NCBI GenBank assembly: GCA_000092065.1
Contig: CP000582.1
Strand: one strand, 5' to 3'
Length of the DNA stretch: 64,000 nucleotides
From: Ostreococcus lucimarinus
Taxonomy: Eukaryota
Positions 4,087-25,677 of this stretch are shown here, one piece after another. Each line of letters opens with the position of its first letter. Position 1 is the first letter of the stretch. The notes under the pieces are model-generated. The model was not told the DNA's origin. It made no database searches and worked only from the letters and a program-made list of their open reading frames with translations. Both the position numbers and the translations under genes were made by a program.

Positions 4087-4191
4087 CCGACCATCGCCCG
4101 CACGCGCGACGACAACTGGCGCGACAGGCGTGGAAAAGACACGAGGCGAACGTGTTTTTCACCAAGGTAGGAATACTCTATTGTAGATGGC

Positions 4192-4279: not shown

Positions 4280-4445
4280 CCCCGAACGCGTTTTTTGAAC
4301 GCGCCGGGGTTTAGCGAAACGCGATGGCGCAACCGTCGCGTTCGCGCGCCCGCCAGTGCGCGGTGCGGCCGCGGCCGCCCGCGGGTGCGCGTGAGTAGTT
4401 CGAGGTGATTCCGACGCGTCGCGTCCGCACGTCGTCGCGCGCCGA

Positions 4446-8354: not shown

Positions 8355-8671
8355 ACACGGCTACAACTCGATCAGAAATACATTTTGTCACCTGTTCATG
8401 TGCCTCCGCGATGCCCGACGCGCGTGCGCGCCACGACAGCAGCGTGAAAGTGACGGGGATGCGCGACGGGCCGAGCGAGTTCAAAAAAAGGACGAAAGGG
8501 CACCGGATTCGAGGTTTTCGTCGACAGTGGGTCATGACGAGTCACAAACGTTCGACTTAAATATGTAAAATGATAGGAAAACCTTAATGCAATGGGTCAT
8601 AATAGCTGAATATATATGGTTTCTCGTCGTAATGGACAAAAGTTGCTTTCATAAAAATAAGGATGTAGTTG

Positions 8672-8993: not shown

Positions 8994-10454
8994 CTAATCA
9001 AAAAAGCTATGGCTGATTGCGTCTAGTGCACTGATACGATCTTCTCGTTTGGGTGTGAGTAGCGCTGTCGCAAGCGCCCATCCCGCACCTTGTGCTGCGT
9101 CAAGTAAAGCCTCTCCCCTACAGCTTGAGCTCACGACCACACGATCATGTGTTCGCCACTCACTCAGATCATAACGATGGCGAGCAACTTCGTTCTTGAA
9201 TGTTAGTAAGCGTTCAGAATCACGGAGATACGGGAAACATAGCTGTAGCATGACGATACCCACGCTGAACATGTCGAATTTTCCAGGTTGATATATTTCC
9301 CAAAGTTCACTTAAATTGTCTGCAGTTGGTTGTGGTGCAGTCGAAGGAAGCAAATATATATCATCTGCAGAGCAGTATCTAGGGTCGGCTGGTCCTTCAC
9401 CGGGAACATAGTTTTTAGGAACTCCCAAGCACTGAGCAGCGGCACCCAGGTCGATGAACACAACTCCACCTTCTTCTGAGAAAACTATATTATCTGGCTT
9501 GATGTCTCGATGTACAATACCCACCGAATGTAAACTCTCCAAATTCTTCAGAATCGAACGCAGAACGAGTTTTATCATCTCACACTCAGTTGTACTTTGT
9601 GAAAGATTGTAAGCTTTGCGAGTAATTGTTTCGAGTGTTTCAGGTTTACGCAATGCTTCCCCAAGAGTAACCGAGCCACAGTATTCCCACATTAGCCAAA
9701 GGCCAGCTGGTAGCGTACCGTTGTAGATCTGACCTTCTTGACGCTGATCTATTTCGCAACAGCCGAAGAATCGAGCACACGATCCCTTCGCCAACTTGTG
9801 AACTGCCTCGTTCAGCTCAAGCTCTGCGTCTAAGAGCTCAGTCGCACCATACACATTTCTTTTTGCACATTTTAACACGACATCTCTTTCCTTCCACGTA
9901 CCACGGAACACAGTGCCAAAACTACCTTCACCAAGTGGTCCTGATTTTGATATTCGTATATCCTCGGGCTGCACGCCAACCGTTCGACGCAAGACAGCTG
10001 GACTATTCAACCTTTCATTTCGCTTCTTTTCCCAATAAGAGGCCATGTCTTCAGATTCTATCGAAAAAGTCTCAGGTCGTGAAAACGTGAGCTTGACTTG
10101 CACACTTTTTTGAGTAGATATGAAGGAGATGATGTCGTCGAAGTACACACCACTACAACCCGTCAAAGCGACGTTGTTTATTTCAATCGCATCAATAATA
10201 TCACCCACCGAAATAATACCACAATCAGCCGCGTGACTTCTTGGAGAGATGTCGGCAACATAAGCACCCTTATCGTCGTTCTGTGGCTGCAAAATTAAGC
10301 CCAAAGGCCTCTTCAGCGTCGTTTGAAATGACTCTTGTCTTGAGGAACCGCACGTTACACGTTTTCTACCACTGGACAACTTTTTGTTTTTCAACTGTAC
10401 TTTTTTCGATGTCGCCGCATTTACAATAGCGACTAGTGCTAAGCTGCGATTCAT
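8994..10454 (-). CDS. Ser/Thr protein kinase with N-terminal PDZ-like domain
   Basis: Kinase motifs: GEGSFGTVFRG...VVLK (G-loop plus Lys), HRDIKPDNIVF (catalytic loop), IDLGAA (DFG variant). N-terminal GLILQPQNDDKGAYVADI...GDIIDAIEINNV resembles a PDZ fold. Confidence 0.7.
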   Translation of the reverse strand: MNRSLALVAIVNAATSKKVQLKNKKLSSGRKRVTCGSSRQESFQTTLKRPLGLILQPQNDDKGAYVADISPRSHAADCGIISVGDIIDAIEINNVALTGCSGVYFDDIISFISTQKSVQVKLTFSRPETFSIESEDMASYWEKKRNERLNSPAVLRRTVGVQPEDIRISKSGPLGEGSFGTVFRGTWKERDVVLKCAKRNVYGATELLDAELELNEAVHKLAKGSCARFFGCCEIDQRQEGQIYNGTLPAGLWLMWEYCGSVTLGEALRKPETLETITRKAYNLSQSTTECEMIKLVLRSILKNLESLHSVGIVHRDIKPDNIVFSEEGGVVFIDLGAAAQCLGVPKNYVPGEGPADPRYCSADDIYLLPSTAPQPTADNLSELWEIYQPGKFDMFSVGIVMLQLCFPYLRDSERLLTFKNEVARHRYDLSEWRTHDRVVVSSSCRGEALLDAAQGAGWALATALLTPKREDRISALDAISHSFFD

Positions 10455-10617
10455 CTGCGACCGGGTGCACGCGTGGATCGAAAAGCGAGCAACTGTTCAG
10501 CTGTTTTTTGCATCTTACGTTGAGGAAGGGAGGTTTCGCGGGTTCGCTTAGTTTCTTAGTCGTCTTTTCCGTCTTGTCGAAGTGCTCGACGTTAAGTAAT
10601 TTAATATATTTGACATC

Positions 10618-10637
10618 AGAAATAAATATTTATTTCT
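10618..10637. promoter_or_regulatory. 20-nt perfect palindrome agaaataaatatttatttct, 10 nt upstream of the PKS ORF start, in the divergent kinase/PKS intergenic region
   Basis: Self-reverse-complement verified by eye. Confidence 0.45.
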
Positions 10638-10646
10638 TGTGATATA

Positions 10647-13600
10647 GTGACATATGACATCGTATTACAACGTTTTACCCCCACTTCGCAAGGACCGACC
10701 ACCCCATATCCATGTGCTATAAAAGCTAACTCAAAATGGAAGCTCGTACGTCTGAAACGCTTGGCGCTCGAGCGTTTCCGATGTCCGATGTTAACGCGCC
10801 ACAAACCGGAGAGCGTTCAGAATGGTACGCCCCGAAATGAATCACGAATGAGCAATCTAGACACACGCGCTATGTCGAACCCTTACTTTCAGGTCGGGCG
10901 ATGGGACTGCACGGACGAGCTCGAGGGGTGTCAATTCTCCGCGCCACATACGTCGGTGTCAGTTCCTAATTTCGAAGAGATTCAGACCCTTCACTACACC
11001 TGCGTGTATGAAGTGGCGATCACGTGTACACAGCGGCATGATATGCATAACGATGAGTTCGCGCATGTACTTAGTTCTGTCATCGAGCTCGCAAATCGCG
11101 TTGACCTGACACGACTTAGGCAACATCACTCCATAGATAACTTTGCCACACACGTTCTCACTTTTCGGTTCATTCTGGACCTGTTGAGGCAAACTTATCA
11201 GGAATACATCAAAGGAAGCATAGAAAATAATTCGTTTGAGCATGTCGAATTTACTTTCAACAATTGCATGGATGGTACGCACGGAATGGCAACATGCTTT
11301 AAACCGAATAAAAAGCATAGTCACCTTTGTTACATTTTGGATATTTCGCAGGCAGAAAGAAGTTGCAATGGTCGTACTGATGACACAAAATGCGTGCACG
11401 ACAAAATTACTATGAACGATCGCGTTCTTTCCGCGGCTAAGATCCCAGACAACGCAGTGAATAAACAATTCAGTGCTAGTATACTCAATGATGTGTATGG
11501 TTTCGATTCAAGTCTGTTCCATATTTCTCAGTCGGAAACCCTCTGCATGGACCCACAACAACGACTATTACTTCTTGCAGCAGCAGACTTATACCTGAGT
11601 AACACACGTGTTTGTCAACACGACGACTCCTTCTGCGTGCACGTCGGTGTATCGTGGAATGACTTTGAGGAAATTCGCAGAAAGTATAGTGCAGACTTTT
11701 TCTCCACTTATGATTCGACGGGAACATCAATAAGTGTCGCATCGGGTAGAATTGCGTATTATTTTGATTTCAAAGGGTGTGCTGTGACGATTGATACGGC
11801 TTGTTCATCATCTTTGGTTGCGTTGCATCAATCCATGTACGCAGCTGGCTCGCTCCGTGAATCAAGTGCACTTGTATGTGGCATCAACTTGATTTTGACA
11901 ACCACGATGACACATCGATTTCAGCTTGCTGGAATGATGTCTTCAGAGCATCGATGTATGACATTTGATGCACGCGCGGATGGCTACGTCCGGAGTGAGG
12001 CATGCAACATCGTACTCTTACACTTCAATGGCTTCACAAAAACTCATAGGAATGTACTGCGGCATGACGTTCATATGTCATGCGTCGTCAATCAAGATGG
12101 AACATCAACTGGACTTACGGCACCTAATGGAACAGCTCAGCGGAACCTGATGAATGAGTTACTATCGGACGTTTATAACCCTTCAAAACACGTTGGTGCT
12201 AAAATACATGCCCACGGCACAGGTACGCCTCTTGGGGATCCGATAGAGGTGTTTGCTATCAATTCTGCCCTCTCGTTTTCGTCACTGTGCAGGCTGTATG
12301 TGTCAGAAAAGTCGATGCGAGGGCACACAGAACCTGCTTCAGGTCTATGCAGCACCATACTTGCTTTCGTATCAGGTGCACAGTGCAAGCTACATGGTCA
12401 ACCACATTTACAGCAGTTAAACAATCATATACTAACATCGGTTGATGAAAGTATTTTTCAGCGTTCACTGCATTCCAGTTTTCCCTTAACTTCTATGGCG
12501 AGTGTCACCACAGTAAGCTCCTTCGCGTTCCAAGGGACGAACGCAATGGCTTCACTGACATATATCGACAAATGCAGTATTAGAGTGATTCGCAACACGT
12601 CAGGTCTGAGATCTTTGGTCAAGTTGGAGACTGAATCCCCTGTAAGACTCCCGTACACATTTTCTTGCCTTAGCATCGTCAATGGGAAAATGATACAGCT
12701 AACTTCAATGATTCACGACAAAACATTGAAGCGACTTTTGGATCATCGTGTAGCTGATATGCATCTTATGCCAGCCACAGGCCATCTTGAACTTGAAAGA
12801 GAGCTCACGAAGTGCGCTCTCGTAAGGAATGAACCATATCTTCTGACAAAGATCGCATTTATGCTGCCTCTCAAGCTTGATGAAAGCAATCAACTTATCA
12901 CAGAGATGAACACACATGGTCGCTTACGCGTTGGATGTGGCTCTGGCATATCCAATTACTGGTGTAGTACTGCACGACTTCAAATACCAGTAGGACGTGC
13001 CTGGTGCACGGACCGTACTTTTTATCTGACTAGTAAACTCGTTTCTCGGCGTTTCAAAGGTGCGACCGCAACAATAGCAGGGACGACGCCAATTCTCGAT
13101 TCACAAAATGTCGTGAATCCGTGTATCCAGGATGCGAGTCTACAATGCTCTGCATACGTCTTGAACACGTCAGCTTTCGCATCTGATACAACCTACATGG
13201 ACTGCGTATCGTTACTTAAGCTACCAACAACAATTCAAGACGTCATAGTTGTTAATCAGACAGGAAAAATACTTGTTAGATCGACGCATGTTGACATGTT
13301 GCAGAAGACGCAGCATGTGACTGAAAGTAATAACTCTGTCACAAGTAACTCTTCGAGTAACAATAAAACGCAGACATGGATACATCGTTTACTGTGTAAA
13401 GTATCAACCGTACGGATGAAAGCTGGCTTACGCACTCGCACATGCTTGGAACTCGCGAGATTGTTGTACCACGCGAGACAACAAAGAGTGCTGATATCAA
13501 ATATGCAAAACTTGCGTGAAGTAGGCAGTTTACATGCTCCAGAACTGATGCCCATCATGCGCGAAATGGGTCGTAAGTCAATGCAAGATATTAATTCGGC

Positions 13601-16600
13601 TAGTGCCTCTCTTTGCGCGGTTGCGCTGCTGCAGGCTTGCGGCGCTCGTGCGCGCGTTTCCGGCGCCCACGTGCGTGCAAACGACATCGTCCACGAGGAC
13701 GCTTCGGCCGCGCCCGCAGTCTGTGGATCGTGCGTGCGCGCCACCGTGCAATCTTCCGCGCAGGAACGCAGCGAGCCATTGGTGCTGAGTGTCGCGAGCG
13801 CCCCGCACACCGCGCCAGCCCGAGCGTTGCGATCGATCGCCGCCGGGGCGTCGATCGCCGGGGCGCTGTGCGTTGAGCGGCTGCTTCCGGCGTTCGGTCG
13901 CCGGACGCCCGCCGCGTCGCGCGACGGCGCGGCGACGACCACGGCGTCGCCGGCACCGAAAGTCTCGAGCGTGTTCGTGACTGGCGGTCTGGGCGCGTTG
14001 GGTCAGACTTCGGCGGCGTGGTACGCGCATCGAGGCGTTCGCCACGCCTACTTGACTGGTCGCCGCGGGCGCGGAGAGTCCCTTCTGCTGCGATGGTCGT
14101 CGCGCGGCGGTACCGACGTGAGCGCATTGCACGTGCTTCGCGTCGACGCGTGTGCGACCGACGAGGCGTCGTACGGCGGTGCGCGCGCGCACGCGCGCGT
14201 GCGCGCACACGGCGTGCTGCACGCGGGCGGCGTGCTACGCGACTCTTTGACTGCTCGCCAATCCGCGTCGGCCCATCGATACGTGTGGTCGTCCAAAGTA
14301 GTGTCCGCGCACGCATTGCTCCGCCAGTGCGTCGGCGTCGAGCGCGGCGCGCGTCACATCGCGCTGTTCTCGTCGGTGGCGGCGCTGCTGGGGAGTCCAG
14401 GGCAATGCAACTACAGCGCGGCCAACGCCGCGCTGGACGCGCGAGCCGCACACGAGTGGTGCCGCGGGTACGCGGTGCAATCCGTGCAGTGGGGCGCGTG
14501 GGACGGCGCGGGAATGGCGCTGACAAACGCGTCTGTACTCAGGAACGCGCGCACGACAGGCATCGGCGTGCTCGATCCGCAAGCCGGGCTCGGGGCCGTA
14601 CACGTCGCGCTTCAGGGCGCATCAGTGACGGGTCGCTGGCGGGCAATCCAAGGCGTCCTGGCCGTCGTCCCGTTCCAGTGGTCCGTGCTCGCGCGCGCGC
14701 AGCGCTCGCGCGCGCTGATTGCGGAGTACCGCGCGGAGTCGGCGCGGTCGAGCGCTCCAGTCGCCGTCCATCCGGGCGCCGAGGAAGACGCGGCGCGCGA
14801 TGTGTCAGATGAGAGCGTGCGGCAGATCGTGGCCTCCGCCGTGACGCGCGCGCTCGGCAGAGACGTGTCGGTGGACGCGTCGCTCATGGAAGAGGGCCTA
14901 GACTCGCTCGCGGCGGTCGAGCTCGGAGGGGCGTTACAAAAGGAAACGGGCGTGAACATGCCGGCCACGCTGGCATTTGACTACCCGACGATCACCGCGA
15001 TATCTGGGTACCTGAAGGGTGCGATGCTGGCGCGATCGCGTGCGCGCCAATCGAGCGGCGCGGCGTCCAGCGCCGCTCGCACGCGCGCCGCGAGCGGCGC
15101 GGTCGCGCATTCGCGCGACTCGATGCCAGGTATTGCATCCAACGCGCGCGAAATCTTGGGTCTTGCGCCCGTTGTTATGGCCATCAGACGGAGCGTGCGA
15201 CGACTCGACGCGGATGATCGAGAGCCAAAGCCTGCTCGACATGGCGGCTCGGCGTTGTTTTCATCGTTCGTGAGGTGCGTCATGGCAGAGCGAGCCTCTG
15301 AAGATCGCTTCGACACGCCATCGTTGGGCAGGCAGCCGAGCGCGACAGCGCGCGTGGTCTCCTTGACGAAAGCCAGAGATTTCACTACACAAGCTCTCGA
15401 CAGCATGCCGAAATGCAACGAGATTGAGCTGAGCGTCGTCAGCGCTGTGTCGAGTAAGGCATCAGGCGCGCACGATGCCGTGCGTGTGAACAACATGCGA
15501 CATGCGTGCGGCGAAGTGTGTGATCCACAAAGCTCAAAATCGCACGAGTTCGTCGCTCGGCGTCTTGTGCAGTTTGGGTACTTCATCGAGCGCAGCTTGT
15601 TTGACGGGGAGCAGTTCTCCGTAACGGCGCACGAGGCGCGGTTGATGGACCCGCAGCAGCGCGTGCTCCTGGAGAACGCGCTCGCCGCGACGAGTGCGAC
15701 GCCGCACAGCGCGCCGAAGCCAGCCACAGCCGTGTCCGTCGGCGCTTGGACGTCTCAGTACGCAGACATGTGCCGCGTGTACGAGCCAACGCCGGGGCCG
15801 TACTCTGGCGTTGCTTCCGCCTTGAGCGTGCTGTGCGGTCGCGTATCGTACACGTTTGGTATGCGTGGCCCGTCCGTGTGTGTCGACACCGCGTGCTCCT
15901 CCTCGCTCGTGGCCGCGCATGTTGCGAGCTCTCACTTGCGCGATGGATCGTGCGAGGACGCCCTCGTCGCCGGCGTGAGCGTGAACGTCGGCATCGGCAC
16001 CTTCCTCGTGGCCACCGCCGCGAGCATGCTATCGTTCGATGGTCGGTGCAAAACCTTGGATGCCAGCGCCGACGGTTACGCCAAGGGCGAGTGCTGCGTG
16101 GTCCTGCGCGTGTCGGTGGACGGGGCGAGCGCTGGAGCGCCCAAAGCGCCCGATCTTCCAAACGCCGAGTCTCCCTCTCTCGCTCTTCTCGAACAGACCG
16201 GTGTGAACCAGGATGGACGGTCGAGCTCGCTCACCGCACCAAACGGGCCGTCGCAGCAGGCACTCGTGGCCGATGCGCTTCTCCGCTCGGGGCTGCACGG
16301 CGACGCGCTCGGCAGGCTGGAGATGCACGGCACGGGTACTTCGCTGGGAGATCCGATAGAGGTCGGCGCCGCGCTTGAGGTTCTCGCGCCGCCGACGCGC
16401 GCGGACCGGGCGCCGTCCAGGGGCCCCGCGCTCACGCTTGAGGGCGTGAAGCCACGCGCTGGCCACTGCGAACCAGGGGCTGGCGCGGTTGGGTTGCTGT
16501 TTGCGATGGCAAACTTGACGGAGCGAGCCGTCGCGTCCCTCGTCCACCTGCGCCAGCTCAACCCTCACGTCGAGGCCGCGACGCGCCGAAACGCACCGTC

Positions 16601-19600
16601 GCCGCATGCGCGCGCGCCGGTGCTCGCGCGACAAGGCATGCCGCGACCGGATGACGGCGCGTCTGAGGCTGGAGCAGCGGACGCTGCTCGAGCGCGCGTG
16701 CGGCGATCCGGCGTGAGCGGCTTCGCGTTCCAGGGCACAAACGCGCACGCAATCATGGCCCGGGGACCCGGACAGGCGACTGCGCCCGGGTACACGGGAA
16801 GCACGCACACGGCGGCGCGTGCGTGGGAGCGTCAGCGCCACTGGTGCGCGCCAGAACGGCACTGCCTCATCGAGTCCGTGCGCGCTCTGCATCCTCGCGA
16901 GGGAGACTCGAGCGCGTTGGCGCGGTCGTGCGTGCGCCTGTGTCGGTCCGCGTCGCTCGCTGGCATGCTTGATCACGCCGTCGGGCTCCGGACGCTGCTA
17001 CCAGGCACAGCGCACGTCGAGATATGTCGAGCCATGGCGGGCGCGCTGGCAGACCAGCCGCTCGCCGACATCTCGCTGTCGCACGTATCTTTTGCAGCGC
17101 CCCTCGAGCTTCGAGCGCCGACGACCGACGTGCTGTGCGACGTCACGCCGCAAGGCGTGGCCCGCGTGGGCGTGCGCGTGTCGTCGTCCTCTGCCGCCGC
17201 GCCGTTCCTCGCGGGCGCGCTCAGCCGCAGAAGCGCCTCAAGAATTACTGCGTCTCCGGCGCACCTCTCGCGAGGACCGGCGATGCCCGCGCTGGACGTG
17301 CAGCCTTGTGTTCACGGCGCGAGCTGGCTGCGCTCGTCGCAGCGACGAGGCCCGGGCGCGGAGCACCGCGTGTACGGCGACATACGCGCGCGTCAGATGT
17401 CCACGCTGTCGGCTGCGGCGTATCACTCGCCGCCCGCAGTGCTCGATGCCGCGCTGCACGCGCTCAGCGCGTGCGCGCCGCCGCCGGGTAGCGATGCGAC
17501 AGAAGAGAGCCCGCACGTCCCGGCCACGATCGGCGGCGTCCGCACGCGAGGCGGGCACTCGGACATATACCGCGCCCGGTTCGCGCTCGCGACGGCTCCG
17601 CCTGAGCGCGGGGAGCGGAACGCGTCCACGCGCAGATCTCGTCACCACCTGTGGGACTGGTCGAGTCTTTCGGCGGCGCATCGAGGGTGCGTGGTGCACG
17701 CGCTGGAGTCTCGACGACTCGGTGGCGCCGCGGTCGTGCGCTCGCGAGCACAACAGCGCTCGAGGGCACCGCCGCCGCGTCGCGCGGCCGCGCCGCGTGT
17801 GCTTTATGGAGTCGGGCAACAGCGCGCGTGCGGCGCGGCGGATGGCCAGGGCGCGCGTCGACGCTCAACCCTCAACTCGCAGTGCTTTGTGGACGACGCG
17901 TCGCACCGCCGCGAGCTGATGGAGACCCACGCGTCACCATCGATCGCGCAAGGCAGCACGCGAAGCAGCACGCGCGCCTCTCTTTGCGCGGTTGCGCTGC
18001 TGCAGGCTTGCGGCGCTCGTGCGCGCGTTTCCGGCGCCCACGTGCGTGCAAACGACATCGTCCACGAGGACGCTTCGGCCGCGCCCGCAGTCTGTGGATC
18101 GTGCGTGCGCGCCACCGTGCAGTCTTCCGCGCAGGAACGCAGCGAGCCATTGGTGCTGAGTGTCGCGAGCGCCCCGCACACCGCGCCAGCCCGAGCGTTG
18201 CGATCGATCGCCGCCGGGGCGTCGATCGCCGGGGCGCTGTGCGTTGAGCGTCTGCTTCCGACGTTCGGTCGCCGGACGCCCGCCGCGTCGCGCGACGGCG
18301 CGGCGACGACCACGGCGTCGCCGGCACCGAAAGTCTCGAGCGTGTTCGTGACTGGCGGTCTGGGCGCGTTGGGTCAGACTTCGGCGGCGTGGTACGCGCA
18401 TCGAGGCGTTCGCCACGCCTACTTGACTGGTCGCCGCGGGCGCGGAGAGTCCCTTCTGCTGCGATGGTCGTCGCGCGGCGGTACCGACGTGAGCGCATTG
18501 CACGTGCTTCGCGTCGACGCGTGTGCGACCGACGAGGCGTCGTACGGCGGTGCGCGCGCGCACGCGCGCGTGCGCGCACACGGCGTGCTGCACGCGGGCG
18601 GCGTGCTACGCGACTCTTTGACTGCTCGCCAATCCGCGTCGGCCCATCGATACGTGTGGTCGTCCAAAGTAGTGTCCGCGCACGCATTGCTCCGCCAGTG
18701 CGTCGGCGTCGAGCGCGGCGCGCGTCACATCGCGCTGTTCTCGTCGGTGGCGGCGCTGCTGGGGAGTCCAGGGCAATGCAACTACAGCGCGGCCAACGCC
18801 GCGCTGGACGCGCGAGCCGCACACGAGTGGTGCCGCGGGTACGCGGTGCAATCCGTGCAGTGGGGCGCGTGGGACGGCGCGGGAATGGCGCTGACAAACG
18901 CGTCTGTACTCAGGAACGCGCGCACGACAGGCATCGGCGTGCTCGATCCGCAAGCCGGGCTCGGGGCCGTACACGTCGCGCTTCAGGGCGCATCAGTGAC
19001 GGGTCGCTGGCGGGCAATCCAAGGCGTCCTGGCCGTCGTCCCGTTCCAGTGGTCCGTGCTCGCGCGCGCGCAGCGCTCGCGCGCGCTGATTGCGGAGTAC
19101 CGCGCGGAGTCGGCGCGGTCGAGCGCTCCAGTCGCCGTCCATCCGGGCGCCGAGGAAGACGCGGCGCGCGATGTGTCAGATGAGAGCGTGCGGCAGATCG
19201 TGGCCTCCGCCGTGACGCGCGCGCTCGGCAGAGACGTGTCGGTGGACGCGTCGCTCATGGAAGAGGGCCTAGACTCGCTCGCGGCGGTCGAGCTCGGAGG
19301 GGCGTTACAAAAGGAAACGGGCGTGAACATGCCGGCCACGCTGGCATTTGACTACCCGACGATCACCGCGATATCTGGGTACCTGAAGGGTGCGATGCTG
19401 GCGCGATCGCGTGCGCGCCAATCGAGCGGCGCGGCGTCCAGCGCCGCTCGCACGCGCGCCGCGAGCGGCGCGGTCGCGCATTCGCGACGTACAACCATTA
19501 CTCAGCTCCCTCGTCTACGTCTATCATACGTTCCGCATGAAGTCAGCCGACGAACGACTCTTGGCATTAGCGGTCAATATTCTCACGAGCTTAGACACTT

Positions 19601-22600
19601 TAGCTCTGCGGGACCTTCGACCAGTAACTTTGAGGGAGTCCTCTTTGTTCGCATTCATAACTCCACCAAGCCCTTACCCGTGCATCCATATTTCATTGGC
19701 AACTTTTTGCGTTGTGACGAACTCGAGTTCGGCTTGTTTGGCGCACCGCACAGCGAATGGACTACTCTGGACGCGCGGCAGATTCTCTTGATTGAGAGTG
19801 TACACACTATCCAGCTGAACAACAGTTCAGACGTTTCATTGCGCACTCTAGAGACGACGGCTGTTCTTGTTGGAGCACAAGCGGTAGATTCAACTGACGA
19901 GCATAGCGTTGAGATACAGTACAACGCCTACTCTGGCGTTGCTTCCGCCTTGAGCGTGCTGTGCGGTCGCGTATCGTACACGTTTGGTATGCGTGGCCCG
20001 TCCGTGTGTGTCGACACCGCGTGCTCCTCCTCGCTCGTGGCCGCGCATGTTGCGAGCTCTCACTTGCGCGATGGATCGTGCGAGGACGCCCTCGTCGCCG
20101 GCGTGAGCGTGAACGTCGGCATCGGCACCTTCCTCGTGGCCACCGCCGCGAGCATGCTATCGTTCGATGGTCGGTGCAAAACCTTGGATGCCAGCGCCGA
20201 CGGTTACGCCAAGGGCGAGTGCTGCGTGGTCCTGCGCGTGTCGGTGGACGGGGCGAGCGCTGGAGCGCCCAAAGCGCCCGATCTTCCAAACGCCGAGTCT
20301 CCCTCTCTCGCTCTTCTCGAACAGACCGGTGTGAACCAGGATGGACGGTCGAGCTCGCTCACCGCACCAAACGGGCCGTCGCAGCAGGCACTCGTGGCCG
20401 ATGCGCTTCTCCGCTCGGGGCTGCACGGCGACGCGCTCGGCAGGCTGGAGATGCACGGCACGGGTACTTCGCTGGGAGATCCGATAGAGGTCGGCGCCGC
20501 GCTTGAGGTTCTCGCGCCGCCGACGCGCGCGGACCGGGCGCCGTCCAGGGGCCCCGCGCTCACGCTTGAGGGCGTGAAGCCACGCGCTGGCCACTGCGAA
20601 CCAGGGGCTGGCGCGGTTGGGTTGCTGTTTGCGATGGCAAACTTGACGGAGCGAGCCGTCGCGTCCCTCGTCCACCTGCGCCAGCTCAACCCTCACGTCG
20701 AGGCCGCGACGCGCCGAAACGCACCGTCGCCGCATGCGCGCGCGCCGGTGCTCGCGCGACAAGGCATGCCGCGACCGGATGACGGCGCGTCTGAGGCTGG
20801 AGCAGCGGACGCTGCTCGAGCGCGCGTGCGGCGATCCGGCGTGAGCGGCTTCGCGTTCCAGGGCACAAACGCGCACGCAATCATGGCCCGGGGACCCGGA
20901 CAGGCGACTGCGCCCGGGTACACGGGAAGCACGCACACGGCGGCGCGTGCGTGGGAGCGTCAGCGCCACTGGTGCGCGCCAGAACGGCACTGCCTCATCG
21001 AGTCCGTGCGCGCTCTTCATCCTCGCGAGGGAGACTCGAGCGCGTTGGCGCGGTCGTGCGTGCGCCTGTGTCGGTCCGCGTCGCTCGCTGGCATGCTTGA
21101 TCACGCCATCGGGCTCCGGACGCTACTACCAGGCACAGCGCACGTCGAGATATGTCGAGCCATGGCGGGCGCGCTGGCAGACCAGCCGCTCGCCGACATC
21201 TCGCTGTCGCACGTATCTTTTGCAGCGCCCCTCGAGCTTCGAGCGCCGACGACCGACGTGCTGTGCGACGTCACGCCGCAAGGCGTGGCCCGCGTGGGCG
21301 TGCGCGTGTCGTCGTCCTCTGCCGCCGCGCCGTTCCTCGCGGGCGCGCTCAGCCGCAGAAGCGCCTCAAGAATTACTGCGTCTCCGGCGCACCTCTCGCG
21401 AGGACCGGCGATGCCCGCGCTGGACGTGCAGCCTTGTGTTCACGGCGCCATCAGACGGAGCGTGCGACGACTCGACGCGGATGATCGAGAGCCAAAGCCT
21501 GCTCGACATGGCGGCTCGGCGTTGTTTTCATCGTTCGTGAGGTGCGTCATGGCAGAGCGAGCCTCTGAAGATCGCTTCGACACGCCATCGTTGGGCAGGC
21601 AGCCGAGCGCGACAGCGCGCGTGGTCTCCTTGACGAAAGCCAGAGATTTCACTACACAAGCTCTCGACAGCATGCCGAAATGCAACGAGATTGAGCTGAG
21701 CGTCGTCAGCGCTGTGTCGAGTAAGGCATCAGGCGCGCACGATGCTGTGCGTGTGAACAACATGCGACATGCGTGCGGCGAAGTGTGTGATCCACAAAGC
21801 TCAAAATCGCACGAGTTCGTCGCTCGGCATCTTGTGCAGTTTGGGTACTTCATCGAGCGCAGCTTGTTTGACGGGGAGCAGTTCTCCGTAACGGCGCACG
21901 AGGCGCGGTTGATGGACCCGCAGCAGCGCGTGCTCCTGGAGAACGCGCTCGCCGCGACGAGCGCGACGCCGCACAGCGCGCCGAAGCCAGCCACAGCCGT
22001 GTCCGTCGGCGCTTGGACGTCTCAGTACGCAGACATGTGCCGCGTGTACGAGCCAACGCCGGGGCCGTACTCTGGCGTTGCTTCCGCCTTGAGCGTGCTG
22101 TGCGGTCGCGTATCGTACACGTTTGGTATGCGTGGCCCGTCCGTGTGTGTCGACACCGCGTGCTCCTCCTCGCTCGTGGCCGCGCATGTTGCGAGCTCTC
22201 ACTTGCGCGATGGATCGTGCGAGGACGCCCTCGTCGCCGGCGTGAGCGTGAACGTCGGCATCGGCACCTTCCTCGTGGCCACCGCCGCGAGCATGCTATC
22301 GTTCGATGGTCGGTGCAAAACCTTGGATGCCAGCGCCGACGGTTACGCCAAGGGCGAGTGCTGCGTGGTCCTGCGCGTGTCGGTGGACGGGGCGAGCGCT
22401 GGAGCGCCCAAAGCGCCCGATCTTCCAAACGCCGAGTCTCCCTCTCTCGCTCTTCTCGAACAGACCGGTGTGAACCAGGATGGACGGTCGAGCTCGCTCA
22501 CCGCACCAAACGGGCCGTCGCAGCAGGCACTCGTGGCCGATGCGCTTCTCCGCTCGGGGCTGCACGGCGACGCGCTCGGCAGGCTGGAGATGCACGGCAC

Positions 22601-24623
22601 AGGTACTTCGCTGGGAGATCCGATAGAGGTCGGCGCCGCGCTTGAGGTTCTCGCGCCGCCGACGCGCGCGGACCGGGCGCCGTCCAGGCCCCCCGCGCTC
22701 ACGCTTGAGGGCGTGAAGCCACGCGCTGGCCACTGCGAACCAGGGGCTGGCGCGGTTGGGTTGCTGTTTGCGATGGCAAACTTGACGGAGCGAGCCGTCG
22801 CGTCCCTCGTCCACCTGCGCCAGCTCAACCCTCACGTCGAGGCCGCGACGCGCCGAAACGCACCGTCGCCGCATGCGCGCGCGCCGGTGCTCGCGCGACA
22901 AGGCATGCCGCGACCGGATGACGGCGCGTCTGAGGCTGGAGCAGCGGACGCTGCTCGAGCGCGCGTGCGGCGATCCGGCGTGAGCGGCTTCGCGTTCCAG
23001 GGCACAAACGCGCACGCAATCATGGCCCGGGGACCCGGACAGGCGACTGCGCCCGGGTACACGGGAAGCACGCACACGGCGGCGCGTGCGTGGGAGCGTC
23101 AGCGCCACTGGTGCGCGCCAGAACGGCACTGCCTCATCGAGTCCGTGCGCGCTCTTCATCCTCGCGAGGGAGACTCGAGCGCGTTGGCGCGGTCGTGCGT
23201 GCGCCTGTGTCGGTCCGCGTCGCTCGCTGGCATGCTTGATCACGCCATCGGGCTCCGGACGCTACTACCAGGCACAGCGCACGTCGAGATATGTCGAGCC
23301 ATGGCGGGCGCGCTGGCAGACCAGCCGCTCGCCGACATCTCGCTGTCGCACGTATCTTTTGCAGCGCCCCTCGAGCTTCGAGCGCCGACGACCGACGTGC
23401 TGTGCGACGTCACGCCGCAAGGCGTGGCCCGCGTGGGCGTGCGCGTGTCGTCGTCCTCTGCCGCCGCGCCGTTCCTCGCGGGCGCGCTCAGCCGCAGAAG
23501 CGCCTCAAGAATTACTGCGTCTCCGGCGCACCTCTCGCGAGGACCGGCGATGCCCGCGCTGGACGTGCAGCCTTGTGTTCACGGCGCGAGCTGGCTGCGC
23601 TCGTCGCAGCGACGAGGCCCGGGCGCGGAGCACCGCGTGTACGGCGACATACGCGCGCGTCAGATGTCCACGCTGTCGGCTGCGGCGTATCACTCGCCGC
23701 CCGCAGTGCTCGATGCCGCGCTGCACGCGCTCAGCGCGTGCGCGCCGCCGCCGGGTAGCGATGCGACAGAAGAGAGCCCGCACGTCCCGGCCACGATCGG
23801 CGGCGTCCGCACGCGAGGCGGGCACTCGGACATGTACCGCGCCCGGTTCGCGCTCGCGACGGCTCCGCCTGAGCGCGGGGAGCGGAACGCGTCCACGCGC
23901 AGATCTCGTCACCACCTGTGGGACTGGTCGAGTCTTTCGGCGGCGCATCGAGGGTGCGTGGTGCACGCGCTGGAGTCTCGACGACTCGGTGGCCTCACGA
24001 CGAATTCATTTTATCATAGCTTTACGTCTACGCAGGCATATAAGTTGGCTCATATTCCACGGCCAGACATCCTATCGCAGTCTTTCACTTCAATGAAGAC
24101 TATAAATGCTGTCGACAAAGCTAGCAGCACATTTACAGAACGCAGTAGTGATGCGATGGAAATTGTTAACGCCGTGCAACGCGAGATTTTGGAAATTTTA
24201 TCAACATTAACGACCAGTCCTGTAAGTTTAGATGATACACTTGCGAGCCACGGATTGGACTCACTGGGCATTGCATATTTTTTTATTCAAGTTGGCAAAC
24301 GGTTCAATGTTGAAGTGACTGTTGACAGTCTTGGCACGAACACCACAGTCAGTAGTATAGTGCATCAGATATCACAGATGCTTAGTGCAAGGGTGATTTT
24401 CCTACACACCAAGGACCTGGTGCGCGAGCGAAAAGCCGACAGCTCCTCAAGAAGAGGAAGGAGCACTGCGATCACATCGATGGTGTCTGCATACCGTCGA
24501 CACTTGCAGTCAACTGAATTCGAGCCCAAAGCCTGTTTTGCAAGAGGCGTACTTGCTTGCGCAATATTTACTATATTTATCATTGCGTACGGATATCACG
24601 CACACAGATTCGACATGTTTTAG
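10647..24623 (+). CDS. Type I modular polyketide synthase, AT-less (trans-AT-like); domain order KS-DH-[KR-ACP-KS-DH]x2-KS-DH-ACP with a C-terminal hydrophobic tail; 4658 aa, single intronless ORF
   Basis: KS motifs: EAxxMDPQQRLLLE-like CMDPQQRLLLL and RLMDPQQRVLLE; active-site DTACSSSLVALH / DTACSSSLVAAH; HGTGTPLGDPIE / HGTGTSLGDPIE; FQGTNAH. DH motifs: LLDHRVADMHLMPATGHLE and LDHAVGLRTLLPGTAHVE plus DAALHAL. KR motifs: VFVTGGLGALG (NADPH site) and SPGQCNYSAANAALD. ACP motifs: EEGLDSLAAVEL and terminal ASHGLDSLGIAYF. No GHSxG acyltransferase motif and no ER anywhere. The true start Met may be internal (for example MSNLDTRAMSNPYF). Confidence 0.85.
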   Translation: MTYDIVLQRFTPTSQGPTTPYPCAIKANSKWKLVRLKRLALERFRCPMLTRHKPESVQNGTPRNESRMSNLDTRAMSNPYFQVGRWDCTDELEGCQFSAPHTSVSVPNFEEIQTLHYTCVYEVAITCTQRHDMHNDEFAHVLSSVIELANRVDLTRLRQHHSIDNFATHVLTFRFILDLLRQTYQEYIKGSIENNSFEHVEFTFNNCMDGTHGMATCFKPNKKHSHLCYILDISQAERSCNGRTDDTKCVHDKITMNDRVLSAAKIPDNAVNKQFSASILNDVYGFDSSLFHISQSETLCMDPQQRLLLLAAADLYLSNTRVCQHDDSFCVHVGVSWNDFEEIRRKYSADFFSTYDSTGTSISVASGRIAYYFDFKGCAVTIDTACSSSLVALHQSMYAAGSLRESSALVCGINLILTTTMTHRFQLAGMMSSEHRCMTFDARADGYVRSEACNIVLLHFNGFTKTHRNVLRHDVHMSCVVNQDGTSTGLTAPNGTAQRNLMNELLSDVYNPSKHVGAKIHAHGTGTPLGDPIEVFAINSALSFSSLCRLYVSEKSMRGHTEPASGLCSTILAFVSGAQCKLHGQPHLQQLNNHILTSVDESIFQRSLHSSFPLTSMASVTTVSSFAFQGTNAMASLTYIDKCSIRVIRNTSGLRSLVKLETESPVRLPYTFSCLSIVNGKMIQLTSMIHDKTLKRLLDHRVADMHLMPATGHLELERELTKCALVRNEPYLLTKIAFMLPLKLDESNQLITEMNTHGRLRVGCGSGISNYWCSTARLQIPVGRAWCTDRTFYLTSKLVSRRFKGATATIAGTTPILDSQNVVNPCIQDASLQCSAYVLNTSAFASDTTYMDCVSLLKLPTTIQDVIVVNQTGKILVRSTHVDMLQKTQHVTESNNSVTSNSSSNNKTQTWIHRLLCKVSTVRMKAGLRTRTCLELARLLYHARQQRVLISNMQNLREVGSLHAPELMPIMREMGRKSMQDINSASASLCAVALLQACGARARVSGAHVRANDIVHEDASAAPAVCGSCVRATVQSSAQERSEPLVLSVASAPHTAPARALRSIAAGASIAGALCVERLLPAFGRRTPAASRDGAATTTASPAPKVSSVFVTGGLGALGQTSAAWYAHRGVRHAYLTGRRGRGESLLLRWSSRGGTDVSALHVLRVDACATDEASYGGARAHARVRAHGVLHAGGVLRDSLTARQSASAHRYVWSSKVVSAHALLRQCVGVERGARHIALFSSVAALLGSPGQCNYSAANAALDARAAHEWCRGYAVQSVQWGAWDGAGMALTNASVLRNARTTGIGVLDPQAGLGAVHVALQGASVTGRWRAIQGVLAVVPFQWSVLARAQRSRALIAEYRAESARSSAPVAVHPGAEEDAARDVSDESVRQIVASAVTRALGRDVSVDASLMEEGLDSLAAVELGGALQKETGVNMPATLAFDYPTITAISGYLKGAMLARSRARQSSGAASSAARTRAASGAVAHSRDSMPGIASNAREILGLAPVVMAIRRSVRRLDADDREPKPARHGGSALFSSFVRCVMAERASEDRFDTPSLGRQPSATARVVSLTKARDFTTQALDSMPKCNEIELSVVSAVSSKASGAHDAVRVNNMRHACGEVCDPQSSKSHEFVARRLVQFGYFIERSLFDGEQFSVTAHEARLMDPQQRVLLENALAATSATPHSAPKPATAVSVGAWTSQYADMCRVYEPTPGPYSGVASALSVLCGRVSYTFGMRGPSVCVDTACSSSLVAAHVASSHLRDGSCEDALVAGVSVNVGIGTFLVATAASMLSFDGRCKTLDASADGYAKGECCVVLRVSVDGASAGAPKAPDLPNAESPSLALLEQTGVNQDGRSSSLTAPNGPSQQALVADALLRSGLHGDALGRLEMHGTGTSLGDPIEVGAALEVLAPPTRADRAPSRGPALTLEGVKPRAGHCEPGAGAVGLLFAMANLTERAVASLVHLRQLNPHVEAATRRNAPSPHARAPVLARQGMPRPDDGASEAGAADAARARVRRSGVSGFAFQGTNAHAIMARGPGQATAPGYTGSTHTAARAWERQRHWCAPERHCLIESVRALHPREGDSSALARSCVRLCRSASLAGMLDHAVGLRTLLPGTAHVEICRAMAGALADQPLADISLSHVSFAAPLELRAPTTDVLCDVTPQGVARVGVRVSSSSAAAPFLAGALSRRSASRITASPAHLSRGPAMPALDVQPCVHGASWLRSSQRRGPGAEHRVYGDIRARQMSTLSAAAYHSPPAVLDAALHALSACAPPPGSDATEESPHVPATIGGVRTRGGHSDIYRARFALATAPPERGERNASTRRSRHHLWDWSSLSAAHRGCVVHALESRRLGGAAVVRSRAQQRSRAPPPRRAAAPRVLYGVGQQRACGAADGQGARRRSTLNSQCFVDDASHRRELMETHASPSIAQGSTRSSTRASLCAVALLQACGARARVSGAHVRANDIVHEDASAAPAVCGSCVRATVQSSAQERSEPLVLSVASAPHTAPARALRSIAAGASIAGALCVERLLPTFGRRTPAASRDGAATTTASPAPKVSSVFVTGGLGALGQTSAAWYAHRGVRHAYLTGRRGRGESLLLRWSSRGGTDVSALHVLRVDACATDEASYGGARAHARVRAHGVLHAGGVLRDSLTARQSASAHRYVWSSKVVSAHALLRQCVGVERGARHIALFSSVAALLGSPGQCNYSAANAALDARAAHEWCRGYAVQSVQWGAWDGAGMALTNASVLRNARTTGIGVLDPQAGLGAVHVALQGASVTGRWRAIQGVLAVVPFQWSVLARAQRSRALIAEYRAESARSSAPVAVHPGAEEDAARDVSDESVRQIVASAVTRALGRDVSVDASLMEEGLDSLAAVELGGALQKETGVNMPATLAFDYPTITAISGYLKGAMLARSRARQSSGAASSAARTRAASGAVAHSRRTTITQLPRLRLSYVPHEVSRRTTLGISGQYSHELRHFSSAGPSTSNFEGVLFVRIHNSTKPLPVHPYFIGNFLRCDELEFGLFGAPHSEWTTLDARQILLIESVHTIQLNNSSDVSLRTLETTAVLVGAQAVDSTDEHSVEIQYNAYSGVASALSVLCGRVSYTFGMRGPSVCVDTACSSSLVAAHVASSHLRDGSCEDALVAGVSVNVGIGTFLVATAASMLSFDGRCKTLDASADGYAKGECCVVLRVSVDGASAGAPKAPDLPNAESPSLALLEQTGVNQDGRSSSLTAPNGPSQQALVADALLRSGLHGDALGRLEMHGTGTSLGDPIEVGAALEVLAPPTRADRAPSRGPALTLEGVKPRAGHCEPGAGAVGLLFAMANLTERAVASLVHLRQLNPHVEAATRRNAPSPHARAPVLARQGMPRPDDGASEAGAADAARARVRRSGVSGFAFQGTNAHAIMARGPGQATAPGYTGSTHTAARAWERQRHWCAPERHCLIESVRALHPREGDSSALARSCVRLCRSASLAGMLDHAIGLRTLLPGTAHVEICRAMAGALADQPLADISLSHVSFAAPLELRAPTTDVLCDVTPQGVARVGVRVSSSSAAAPFLAGALSRRSASRITASPAHLSRGPAMPALDVQPCVHGAIRRSVRRLDADDREPKPARHGGSALFSSFVRCVMAERASEDRFDTPSLGRQPSATARVVSLTKARDFTTQALDSMPKCNEIELSVVSAVSSKASGAHDAVRVNNMRHACGEVCDPQSSKSHEFVARHLVQFGYFIERSLFDGEQFSVTAHEARLMDPQQRVLLENALAATSATPHSAPKPATAVSVGAWTSQYADMCRVYEPTPGPYSGVASALSVLCGRVSYTFGMRGPSVCVDTACSSSLVAAHVASSHLRDGSCEDALVAGVSVNVGIGTFLVATAASMLSFDGRCKTLDASADGYAKGECCVVLRVSVDGASAGAPKAPDLPNAESPSLALLEQTGVNQDGRSSSLTAPNGPSQQALVADALLRSGLHGDALGRLEMHGTGTSLGDPIEVGAALEVLAPPTRADRAPSRPPALTLEGVKPRAGHCEPGAGAVGLLFAMANLTERAVASLVHLRQLNPHVEAATRRNAPSPHARAPVLARQGMPRPDDGASEAGAADAARARVRRSGVSGFAFQGTNAHAIMARGPGQATAPGYTGSTHTAARAWERQRHWCAPERHCLIESVRALHPREGDSSALARSCVRLCRSASLAGMLDHAIGLRTLLPGTAHVEICRAMAGALADQPLADISLSHVSFAAPLELRAPTTDVLCDVTPQGVARVGVRVSSSSAAAPFLAGALSRRSASRITASPAHLSRGPAMPALDVQPCVHGASWLRSSQRRGPGAEHRVYGDIRARQMSTLSAAAYHSPPAVLDAALHALSACAPPPGSDATEESPHVPATIGGVRTRGGHSDMYRARFALATAPPERGERNASTRRSRHHLWDWSSLSAAHRGCVVHALESRRLGGLTTNSFYHSFTSTQAYKLAHIPRPDILSQSFTSMKTINAVDKASSTFTERSSDAMEIVNAVQREILEILSTLTTSPVSLDDTLASHGLDSLGIAYFFIQVGKRFNVEVTVDSLGTNTTVSSIVHQISQMLSARVIFLHTKDLVRERKADSSSRRGRSTAITSMVSAYRRHLQSTEFEPKACFARGVLACAIFTIFIIAYGYHAHRFDMF
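13605..23993. repeat. 10.4-kb block of near-identical tandem segmental duplications inside the PKS ORF. Segments: a 13605-15115 = 17976-19486 (KR-ACP). b2 15182-15800 = 21449-22067 (linker plus KS N-terminus). c 15801-17320 = 19929-21448 = 22068-23587 (KS core plus DH N-half). d 17321-17975, partial copy 23588-23993. Order is a-b-c-d-a-b'-c-b2-c-d'.
   Basis: The offsets 4371, 4128 and 6267 nt were verified at several junctions. Copies differ by only a few SNPs (for example caatcttcc/cagtcttcc, gagcggctg/gagcgtctg, RRLVQ/RHLVQ, SRGP/SRPP). The block is about 70% GC against about 47% in the flanks. Confidence 0.85.
19487..19928 (+). repeat. Divergent low-GC paralogue (b') of the linker / KS-N-terminus segment, replacing the 685-nt GC-rich b segment in module copy 2
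   Basis: It encodes FGLFGAPHSEWTTLDARQILLIESVHTIQ...TAVLVGAQAVDSTDEHSVEIQYNAYSGVAS. This aligns with FSVTAHEARLMDPQQRVLLENALAATSA...TAVSVGAWTSQYADMCRVYEPTPGPYSGVAS of the other copies. Nucleotide composition resembles the host flanks. Confidence 0.7.
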
Positions 24624-24726
24624 TTACCAACGTCACGGCGGTAGGCTCATTGCCCTTGTAATTCAACTCCGTTCTCAAAAAGTTGTCTGTTAAGTACTTT
24701 GAGCACTGTTCAGCTCTCACCGCTGA

Positions 24727-24795
24727 CTCCCGACAGGAGTTAGCTAAAACTCCTGACAGGAGTTAGCTAAAACTCCTGACAGGAGTTAGCGAAAG
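24727..24795. repeat. 3 x 23-nt tandem repeat (ctcc[c/t]gacaggagttagc[t/g]aaa[a/g]), each unit containing a near-palindrome ctcctgacaggag; immediately upstream of ORF 24796
   Basis: Direct repeats read in the sequence. Only three units and no spacers, so not a CRISPR array. Confidence 0.8.
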
Positions 24796-25677
24796 GTGAT
24801 GCCGAGGCGCACATCATTAGCCAACGGCAGCTCGCTGTACGACGGGTTGCGATTTAAGTCGAGCGGGTTCAAGCGTTCGGGCAGGAAAGTGAACTTTTAC
24901 ACGTGTAGTACGATCGACGACTCGGACAGAAACGCGTCCTCGACGGGGAGATGCACGTTCGAGGCGGAGATCCGGCACAGAGCCGCGACGGACGAGTACT
25001 TCATCACCAAGTACGTCGGCCATTCGTTCGGTTGCACCGCGCTCTCGCCCCACATCGACGGGGAAACGCGAGCCGAGCTCGTCGATGACGTGCAAATGCA
25101 AGCCATATCCCTGCAACGAGGTCGCGTCGCTGTACAATCGTGTATCGATTACGTGTTCCGGCGCTACTCGTACGTCGTCGACGAAGCGCCGGCTGCGTCG
25201 TTACTTCAGTGCGTGCGGCGACGAAGTTCGGTGGCCACTCGCAGAGAGGCTCTTAAGCGCTTCGCTCAGACGAAAGTGCGATCGAAATTACAGGGCGAAC
25301 TCATGACCTGCATCGCGCACTCGCGCCAAGTCATAACCTCGTTGAGCCTGACCGAACGCCCGACGTCACGCGACATTCGAAAGTATTATCATGTGTTCGG
25401 ATTGCTGCACACGCACTGCAGTCGTCTTCCGGAGTTCGACTCGCTCGCAACCGTATGGATGGCCGCAGATACGACTAGCAGCGCCGCGCTCATTCATGCG
25501 CTCGAGCTCGGCATCAAAAAATTCGACAACGCACTGCGCACCGTTCGCCCCGCGACTGCCTCACAAACTGAAGCCTTGCACAACGCTCACGGCCATCTTC
25601 CTCCTTACGATCTCAGTGAAGCCGAGGCGTTGACGGCTCTTCGTAGTATAGCGCGTTCTGCCCAAACACGTTCGTAG
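24796..25677 (+). CDS. Hypothetical protein (293 aa), no recognisable domain; immediately downstream of the PKS
   Basis: Long ORF with host-like composition, preceded by the 23-nt tandem repeat. I could not recognise any motif. Confidence 0.35.
   Translation: MMPRRTSLANGSSLYDGLRFKSSGFKRSGRKVNFYTCSTIDDSDRNASSTGRCTFEAEIRHRAATDEYFITKYVGHSFGCTALSPHIDGETRAELVDDVQMQAISLQRGRVAVQSCIDYVFRRYSYVVDEAPAASLLQCVRRRSSVATRREALKRFAQTKVRSKLQGELMTCIAHSRQVITSLSLTERPTSRDIRKYYHVFGLLHTHCSRLPEFDSLATVWMAADTTSSAALIHALELGIKKFDNALRTVRPATASQTEALHNAHGHLPPYDLSEAEALTALRSIARSAQTRS

Follow-up and report, generated by a model that had tools for sequence, protein, structure and literature searches.

Why does one protein-coding gene, embedded in a GC-poor chromosomal region, switch in mid-frame to about 70% GC and back again? 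We followed up this question in a stretch of 64,000 nucleotides of Ostreococcus lucimarinus (contig CP000582.1; hereafter the window), in which a single open reading frame (ORF) on the plus strand (10647..24623, 4658 aa) covers the entire GC-rich block and encodes a modular polyketide synthase (PKS). The GC-rich island is a tandem array of KR-ACP-KS-DH modules with near-identical copies, and its compositional borders lie at the breakpoints of repeat homology. The best explanation, to which we give a probability of roughly 55%, is that gene conversion or unequal exchange within the array, biased toward GC, keeps the array GC-rich, the single-copy parts of the gene having decayed.

Exact matches of five window proteins to O. 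lucimarinus CCE9901 (ABO94474, ABO94475, ABO94479, ABO94483, and ABO94720) identify the locus as part of chromosome 2 of this strain, the “big outlier chromosome,” within its low-GC outlier or candidate mating-type (MT) region (BOC1). The same matches rule out Bathycoccus as the host, which the 46% GC and a high frequency in marine metagenomes had at first suggested. The low-GC part of this chromosome is considered a recombination-suppressed candidate mating-type locus, of which CCE9901 carries the MT- haplotype; its GC content is 9 to 17 points lower and its GC content at third codon positions (GC3) about 20 points lower, which has been ascribed to absent GC-biased gene conversion (gBGC) (PMC5498103, PMC8557840). 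The literature on the outlier chromosome supports gBGC in O. tauri, and the Ostreococcus genome has a GC content of 0.60, with a mutational equilibrium of 0.36 (PMC8557840). Outside the island, 1-kb windows of the stretch range from 0.41 to 0.57 GC (background 0.41 to 0.49, ~46%), and the GC3 of the other genes is mostly 0.41 to 0.49 (range 0.41 to 0.58; one uncharacterised ORF, 0.68), values that belong to the low-GC outlier region by the norm of PMC8557840. The initial annotation had placed the island in an otherwise about 47% GC genome, a premise that has to be reversed: because the genome norm is ~0.60 GC, the flanks, not the island, are the compositionally unusual part.

A polyketide synthase gene with a GC-rich tandem array

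The likely start codon is the ATG at 10788, preferred because the gene calls in independent contigs begin there, and the resulting product has 4611 aa. Pfam recognises ketoacyl-synt and Ketoacyl-synt_C four times each, KR twice, PP-binding three times, and PKS_DH_N four times, in the order KS-DH at the low-GC N-terminal end, KR-ACP-KS-DH-KR-ACP-KS-DH (N-terminal part only)-KS-DH in the island, and ACP at the low-GC C-terminal end. No Acyl_transf_1 match was found at E ≤ 0.01 across the 4658 aa, and no free-standing acyltransferase (AT) among the ten neighbouring ORFs that were scanned. With colinear domains, catalytic motifs, and no integrated AT, the protein qualifies as a type I modular, AT-less PKS, presumably of the trans-AT kind. 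In the translation of the GC-rich modules, the catalytic motifs of KS (Cys-His-His), KR (NADPH-binding site and Tyr), ACP (DSL), and DH (HxxxGxxxxP) are all preserved, as seen from DTACSSS, HGTGT, NAH, GGLGALG, YSAAN, LDSL, and HAVGLRTLLPG. KS1, in the low-GC part, has GTNAM (~12300-12375) in contrast to GTNAH in the three GC-rich KS domains; because NAM replaces NAH, KS1 is probably non-condensing or perhaps degenerating. The best database matches of the low-GC N-terminal part are 35% to 39% identical, none higher.

As the initial annotation reported, the island (13605-23993) has ~70% GC within one frame (GC3 0.76 to 0.80), and recomputation gave a non-uniform profile, with 1-kb windows over 14001-24000 at 0.61 to 0.72 GC. 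The first (~0.72) and second (~0.60) codon positions are raised as well. The description of a compositional chimera in one frame, with KS-DH and ACP at its low-GC ends, holds by Pfam and segment GC, but the codon usage of these ends, taken to be host-like, is that of the outlier region. Two features had been overlooked: the repeat structure and a 439-nt low-GC segment (19487-19925) inside the island.

The array has a period of 4371 nt, or 1457 codons. Repeats A and A' are 99.8% identical, B and B' 99.6%, and the partial repeat B'' (19926-21448; counterpart in B, 15797-17320) matches B and B' alike at 99.7% identity and is a mosaic of their variants. Composition follows this architecture closely (Table 1). 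Repeated and unique parts of the gene differ at 0.694 versus 0.457 GC (100-nt bins, Mann-Whitney p = 3e-19), and the same domain types within the one ORF differ accordingly, with GC3 of 0.44 to 0.45 in the unique KS1 and ACP and 0.76 to 0.80 in the repeated KS and KR-ACP. The compositional switches are complete within ~10 nt (30-nt windows), and all four in the window lie 6 to 28 nt from repeat-homology breakpoints. The switch at 19926 falls in the middle of a KS domain, with the KS Pfam match running across it.

Table 1. Features of the PKS gene, its compositional borders, and overlapping off-frame ORFs. Positions are those of the window unless a contig is named.
Feature	Position	Strand	GC	GC3	Remarks
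PKS coding sequence	10788..24623	+			type I modular, AT-less; ORF list, Pfam, same start and stop in L028 and L027
N-terminal part	10788..13604	+	0.452	0.443	single-copy, low-GC; KS1 ~11442-12374, weak DH ~12693-12902
Left edge	repeat breakpoint 13605				GC change-point 13597
Repeat A	13605..15115	+	0.711	0.80	KR-ACP; first base is the left compositional switch
Linker l	15116..15179	+			64 nt between A and B; single-copy here, duplicated in 2-unit alleles
Repeat B	15180..17726	+	0.684	0.76	KS-DH
Spacer u	17727..17975	+	0.727	0.77	DH-to-KR linker; single-copy here, part of the 4371-nt period
Repeat A'	17976..19486	+			KR-ACP; second copy of A
A' to ins	repeat breakpoint 19487				GC change-point 19514
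ins	19487..19925	+	0.494	0.49	unique low-GC insert; N-terminal third of KS3
ins to B''	repeat breakpoint 19926				GC change-point 19954
Partial repeat B''	19926..21446	+	0.70		KS core and N-terminal part of DH
Repeat B'	21447..23993	+			KS-DH; last base is the right compositional switch
Right edge	repeat breakpoint 23994				GC change-point 24000
C-terminal part	23994..24623	+	0.444	0.448	single-copy, low-GC; ACP ~24186-24365, hydrophobic tail
Array border in L030	repeat breakpoint 6209				GC change-point 6207 (2 nt)
Array border in L029	repeat breakpoint 4365				GC change-point 4363 (2 nt)
Array border in L024 (Bathycoccus)	repeat breakpoint 12392				GC change-point 12324 (68 nt)
Antisense ORFs	13600..23243	-			span of 13600..14526, 16029..16976, 17872..18897 and repeat copies up to 22296..23243
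Alternative-frame ORFs	16819..17919, 23086..24096	+			by-products of the same kind

Repeats and extreme GC are classic sites of assembly error, and the idea that the GC-rich block stems from another molecule, joined to the gene by the assembler or as contamination, draws on the fact that many short-read contigs break exactly at the island's edges (L011-L014 end 140 nt inside its left side, and L019 and L020 start 127 nt inside its right end). Against it stand independent contigs that cross the left junction (L015, L016, L027, L028, and L011) and the right junction (L019, L020, L027, and L028); they come from different projects and are 99.7% to 99.98% identical to the window. Two of them, L015 and L016, which stem from Tara and a second project, reach from the kinase gene past 13605 to ~6 kb inside the island (99.9% identity); in L028, a 2-unit allele, the gene is complete (window 10339 to 25390) and forms a single ORF of 3979 aa. 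L027 is a 1-unit form of 2522 aa that may be a collapsed assembly. The copy-number alleles of 2522, 3979, and 4611 aa are all in frame and, as proposed initially, both outer junctions keep the frame, in the window as in the two shorter alleles, which share its C-terminus; the frame is in fact intact at all four switches. The reference-specific unit formed by ins and B'' was found in none of the metagenome contigs, a further point for an assembly error; it is nevertheless very probably real, because a fragment of an O. tauri chromosome-2 PKS (P0006) has the same A'-ins-B'' order and shares derived motifs with it. P0006 is colinear with this part of the gene (62% identity overall, 72% in KR-ACP), and, like ins, it has a PxxEW...LIExV motif and has lost the canonical MDPQQR motif. 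Judged by these sequences, KS3 looks older than the split between O. lucimarinus and O. tauri. Misassembly, one of the causes first considered, is thus rejected, and we regard the chance of it as practically negligible. That ins arose through exchange with KS1 or a further copy was likewise rejected, since it has no DNA or protein match in the window or in the loci compared.

One 360-kb contig (L009/L017; JGI 3300047157 Ga0494219_00130) has deletions at both island edges, at window 12837-13604 (net -767 nt) and 23443-24238 (net -796 nt). Each deletion causes a frameshift, and together they isolate the GC-rich array as a separate ORF of 2630 aa, cut off from the low-GC ends; this is either a natural or an assembly variant.

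Relatives of the array and recurrence of the pattern

A second cause raised by the initial annotation was ancient horizontal acquisition of the high-GC modules. We considered it in a form in which modules of a bacterium, a virus, or a different alga were fused in frame into a resident gene. PKS genes are often transferred between bacteria, the compositional borders are very sharp, and a DDE transposase gene lies 5 kb upstream of the PKS gene. The relatives of the modules do not point that way. Apart from the locus itself, the GC-rich KS-DH is closest to an Ostreococcus-type metagenome contig (65% to 67% amino acid identity), followed by the O. tauri chromosome-2 PKS (62%) and Bathycoccus PKSs (up to 50%), whereas bacterial matches to the GC-rich modules reach only ~35% to 38% identity. 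The one contig that emerged from scanning 185,579 bacterial and archaeal genomes was L026, which we interpret below as eukaryotic, and a viral scan yielded nothing relevant, so that both a bacterial donor and a viral source were discarded. Neither foreign closest relatives nor absence from sister taxa, the marks of a horizontally transferred island, were found; instead, orthologous arrays of the same architecture and synteny occur in relatives. A foreign donor would also be insufficient because the same mosaic is present in diverged orthologs and in Bathycoccus. We therefore consider foreign acquisition highly improbable.

Contig L026 (PBDU01000024.1) is filed as “Methanobacteriota archaeon isolate SP339,” a GTDB species-representative metagenome-assembled genome, and carries a Mamiellales-type PKS followed by a UTP20 gene. 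Because of this UTP20 gene, its sequence identifies it as a mis-binned picoeukaryote contig, that is, eukaryotic contamination of an archaeal genome.

The coincidence of composition and repetition recurs in other lineages. Contigs L029 and L030 contain the orthologous PKS array followed by UTP20, with a period of 4179 nt and 99.95% identity between copies; where the array ends, GC drops from 0.64 to 0.445, and the ORF runs on in frame through another ~600 nt that are GC-poor. This lineage is strongly diverged from the window, with identities of 27% for UTP20, 31% for the C-terminal tail, and 52% for KS-DH. The same GC step, from 0.57 to 0.41, is seen in L026. In Bathycoccus prasinos, L024 contains a tandem PKS array with copies that are 99.3% to 99.8% identical, where GC rises from ~0.37 to 0.45 at the array start, and a second allele, L035, alternates strictly between unique (U) and repeated (R) segments (U-R-U-R-U-R-U): its three repeated segments have 0.458 to 0.465 GC (0.46 overall) and its four unique PKS segments 0.35 to 0.41 (0.38 overall), against 0.362 in the flanks (p = 1e-15). 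We accordingly reject high GC as a trait common to Mamiellales PKS coding sequences, as unique PKS segments are GC-poor in both genera.

Two observations on these arrays stand apart. The multi-module type I PKS of B. prasinos has tandem repeats whose copy number differs between L024 and L035. In L025 (JGI 3300046169 Ga0494224_6240), the repeat unit of the tandem PKS array measures 4168 nt, a length not divisible by 3, and the frame is broken, whereas its relative L030, at 92% nucleotide identity, stays in frame with a period of 4179 nt; the array of L025 may be pseudogenised, or consistent indel errors may account for its length.

What could keep the array GC-rich

Of the three causes listed in the initial annotation, GC-biased conversion in a recombining repeat is best supported, if only indirectly. 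The proposed course is as follows. Single-copy DNA of the outlier region would drift toward AT under AT-biased mutation, with no allelic recombination opposing it, whereas recombination among the repeated modules would persist, with gene conversion and unequal exchange inside the array holding them at 99.6% to 99.8% identity; as a GC bias of conversion is documented in Ostreococcus, conversion would also keep the repeated modules GC-rich or drive them there. KS1-DH1, the N-terminus of KS3 (ins), and the C-terminal ACP would then be the single-copy parts that, beyond the reach of conversion, have sunk to the 45% GC of the region. The array has the marks of exchange, namely, near-identical copies, a mosaic B'', a KS3 core that matches its own paralogs, and copy-number alleles, and self-recombination of the array is the reason we propose for these alleles, the mosaic, and the KS3 core. 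Conversion is favoured over plain duplication because KS3 looks older than the species split and yet has a core 99.7% identical to KS2 and KS4. The rise in GC is coextensive with repeat homology and strongest at synonymous sites, with GC3 going from 0.44 to 0.76-0.80. Among young variants of the array, 14 are G/C to A/T (S>W) and 4 the reverse (W>S), which fits AT-biased mutational input; a GC3 near 0.8 despite mostly S>W input implies fixation bias or recent renewal. The identity of the locus, its repeat structure, the match of GC switches to repeat breakpoints, and the recurrence in other lineages are observed; that conversion is ongoing, and that its GC bias is the cause, we infer.

The main rival is import of the modules from a paralog of normal GC content on a recombining chromosome, either once and recently or by repeated ectopic conversion, the copy having had no time to decay. 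DNA does arrive at this locus, as the polymorphic GC-elevated transposon/XPG insertion in the window indicates; MT-region genes with higher GC3 and paralogs outside have been read as recent translocations (PMC8557840); in O. tauri, some PKS genes lie on standard chromosomes, and O. lucimarinus has two further PKSs; and the island GC3 of 0.76 to 0.80 is near or above our own estimate for standard genes. A polarised test, described below, leans S>W, as import would have it. However, a search of 5.8 billion proteins uncovered no relative in the range from 67% to 99% identity (longest listed match, ~1640 aa), and every O. lucimarinus match in the JGI metagenome scan is the same locus. The GC switches sit at repeat breakpoints within the gene, one of them in mid-KS, which is automatic under intra-array conversion and has to be a coincidence if the donor lay outside. 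The mosaic also exists in loci whose UTP20 is only 27% identical and in Bathycoccus, so that parallel imports would be needed in each lineage, and the strongly raised first and second codon positions (0.72 and 0.60) suggest long exposure to GC pressure. Import thus appears unlikely.

Selection offers a different account, in which the repeated catalytic modules are kept GC-rich by needs of the protein, the mRNA, or chromatin, and the termini are unconstrained. The GC-rich modules are indeed better conserved between lineages than the flanks (52% versus 27% to 31%), and a preprint on BOC1 PKS loci describes distinct micrococcal nuclease (MNase) and CpG-methylation signals over PKS regions (10.1101/2025.04.21.649811). 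The shift is nevertheless largest at third codon positions (0.44 to 0.80), the highly conserved BiP gene of the same region has a GC3 of only 0.535, KS and ACP occur in both compositions within one ORF, and spacer u, in which Pfam recognises no domain, is as GC-rich as the catalytic domains. We find such selection quite improbable as the main cause.

Several points weigh against GC-biased conversion within the array. Spacer u is GC-rich although it is, like linker l, single-copy in the reference allele, and both fit the model only as members of the array period; conversely, GC dips in the ACP-KS linker and the KS N-terminus despite repetition there. Array GC varies across lineages from 0.57 to 0.70, which the model does not explain. 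Polarising the L025 and L029 arrays with two outgroups gave only 13 informative changes, 10 S>W and 3 W>S, which lean toward decay in that lineage, but the sites are too few. The search for a donor paralog was confined to the protein database and metagenome contigs, and giant PKS proteins seem to be missing from that database. That P0006 has the same mosaic is read from its amino acid composition, and the orthology of ins with P0006 depends on a small score margin (89 versus 78) plus the motifs. Finally, short-read metagenome assemblies may collapse or mis-thread repeats, so copy-specific variants in them are weak evidence.

If GC-biased conversion is nonetheless at work, a wider reading suggests itself, which we put forward tentatively, at somewhat short of even odds: the repeated PKS modules of the Mamiellales outlier region may be self-converting “GC refuges,” in which intra-gene conversion replaces meiotic recombination and keeps the catalytic modules uniform, GC-rich, and conserved, whereas domains without a partner decay and diverge fast. 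KS1 (without the second catalytic His), ins, and the terminal ACP would be domains that decayed after losing their partner copy. What becomes of an enzyme domain would then hinge on whether it is repeated, and the sharp borders within one ORF would provide an internally controlled gauge of GC-biased conversion without allelic recombination.

Known systems and other features of the window

GC enrichment under gBGC has reportedly been found in concertedly evolving rDNA and histone gene families (Galtier 2003; Escobar et al. 2011). There, as proposed here, repeat-linked conversion raises GC above the single-copy surroundings; the rDNA and histone arrays, however, consist of whole genes, whereas the PKS repeats are enzyme modules in one frame, with composition shifting in mid-protein and even mid-domain. 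Horizontally acquired genomic islands have sharp borders and a nearby mobile-element gene in common with the locus, but here there are no donor-like best matches, orthologs occupy the same locus in relatives, and the borders are repeat breakpoints. The closest precedent, in our assessment, is GC-biased conversion in Y-chromosome palindromes (PMC5591018). The palindromes and ampliconic genes of the human Y are likewise multi-copy DNA in a non-recombining region kept near-identical by conversion and, like the PKS array, they escape the decay that hits adjoining single-copy DNA (Skov et al. 2017, PMC5591018). Unlike them, the PKS modules are direct tandem repeats in one megasynthase ORF of a haploid unicellular alga, and the contrast is far larger (~25 GC points), with the GC bias of conversion inferred here, not measured.

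Parts of the picture were already known, namely, the presence of PKS genes in the outlier region (10.1101/2025.04.21.649811) and module duplication in algal PKSs (PMC4661987). The gene is one of the Mamiellales BOC1 PKS loci of Valiadi et al. and, like them, varies in structure among strains and has a nearby DDE transposon; in the passages searched, their work reports variation in size and domains, association with Mutator-like elements (MULEs), and raised MNase coverage and CpG methylation (10.1101/2025.04.21.649811). Algal AT-less (trans-AT-type) PKSs likewise have KS-DH-KR-ACP modules without integrated AT that are near-identical within a protein; the survey by Shelest et al. (2015, PMC4661987) lists O. 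lucimarinus PKSs with 14, 4, and 4 KS domains (the present gene has 4) and treats the similarity as module duplication at the protein level, without touching on nucleotide composition, the mating-type-region context, or concerted evolution. For Bathycoccus, newer assemblies of which contain arrays, it lists no type I PKS. In the literature and passages searched, we found no account of repeated PKS modules as sharply bounded GC-rich islands with edges at repeat breakpoints.

If GC-biased conversion is the right explanation, the gene would document recombination-linked GC evolution with unusual clarity and with a control of its own inside one ORF. It would back the view that the low GC of the outlier or mating-type region reflects the loss of GC-biased conversion, with a local exception where conversion is possible; it would extend the principle of the Y palindromes to a haploid alga and to modules within a single gene; and it would mean that algal PKS megasynthases evolve by concerted evolution, not by one-off duplication. 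In practical terms, such islands break short-read assemblies at their edges, yield spurious off-frame ORFs, and are open to misreading as contamination or horizontal transfer.

The PKS gene has eukaryotic neighbours (UTP20, XPG, AP-mu, BiP, Ndc80, AcnB, and DXS). Upstream of the PKS gene, 3430-8598 is a polymorphic insertion of 5.2 kb that encodes a DDE_Tnp_4 transposase and an XPG-like nuclease (GC3 0.56 to 0.58), present in the window and in JGI contigs and missing in L011-L014, which have 61 nt instead. Within this transposon region, one metagenome allele contains 1190 additional nt of ~70% GC (L010:10312-11501, between window positions 4958 and 5219), in which there are only Arg-rich ORFs, in several frames. 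Right after the PKS gene, 24796-25677 (+) is an ORF of 293 aa whose GC (0.58) and GC3 (0.68) clearly exceed those of its neighbours. Several assemblies annotate it as a gene; neither a Pfam match nor, in the diverged locus L030, a homolog was found.

Blocks containing BiP-CAF1 (35956-38925) and DXS (60648-63699) are 98.1% and 99.2% identical at the nucleotide level to metagenome contigs with wholly different flanks (L001, L003, L004, and L005-L008), which include a glucokinase gene and a UTP20-like gene only ~28% identical. GC3 is somewhat raised in BiP (0.535) and DXS (0.525) versus 0.41 to 0.49 in most neighbours. By their sequence, these contigs look like the opposite (MT+) haplotype or a sister lineage with recently converted or introgressed blocks.

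The long Arg-rich antisense ORFs in the island had been explained as by-products of composition, and a codon-shuffle control bears this out. In the codon-shuffled island, the longest stop-free runs in the five other frames average 192 to 335 aa; the observed runs of 257 to 322 aa are within this expectation in four of the five frames, and the low-GC part of the same gene has off-frame runs of only 80 to 182 aa. With no Pfam matches and lengths as in the shuffles, the off-frame ORFs were rejected as genes. The sole nominal outlier is a run of 400 aa in the +1 frame (16819-17919, with a copy at 23086-24096), longer than 99.6% of codon shuffles (p = 0.004) and probably due to chance or a codon-pair effect.

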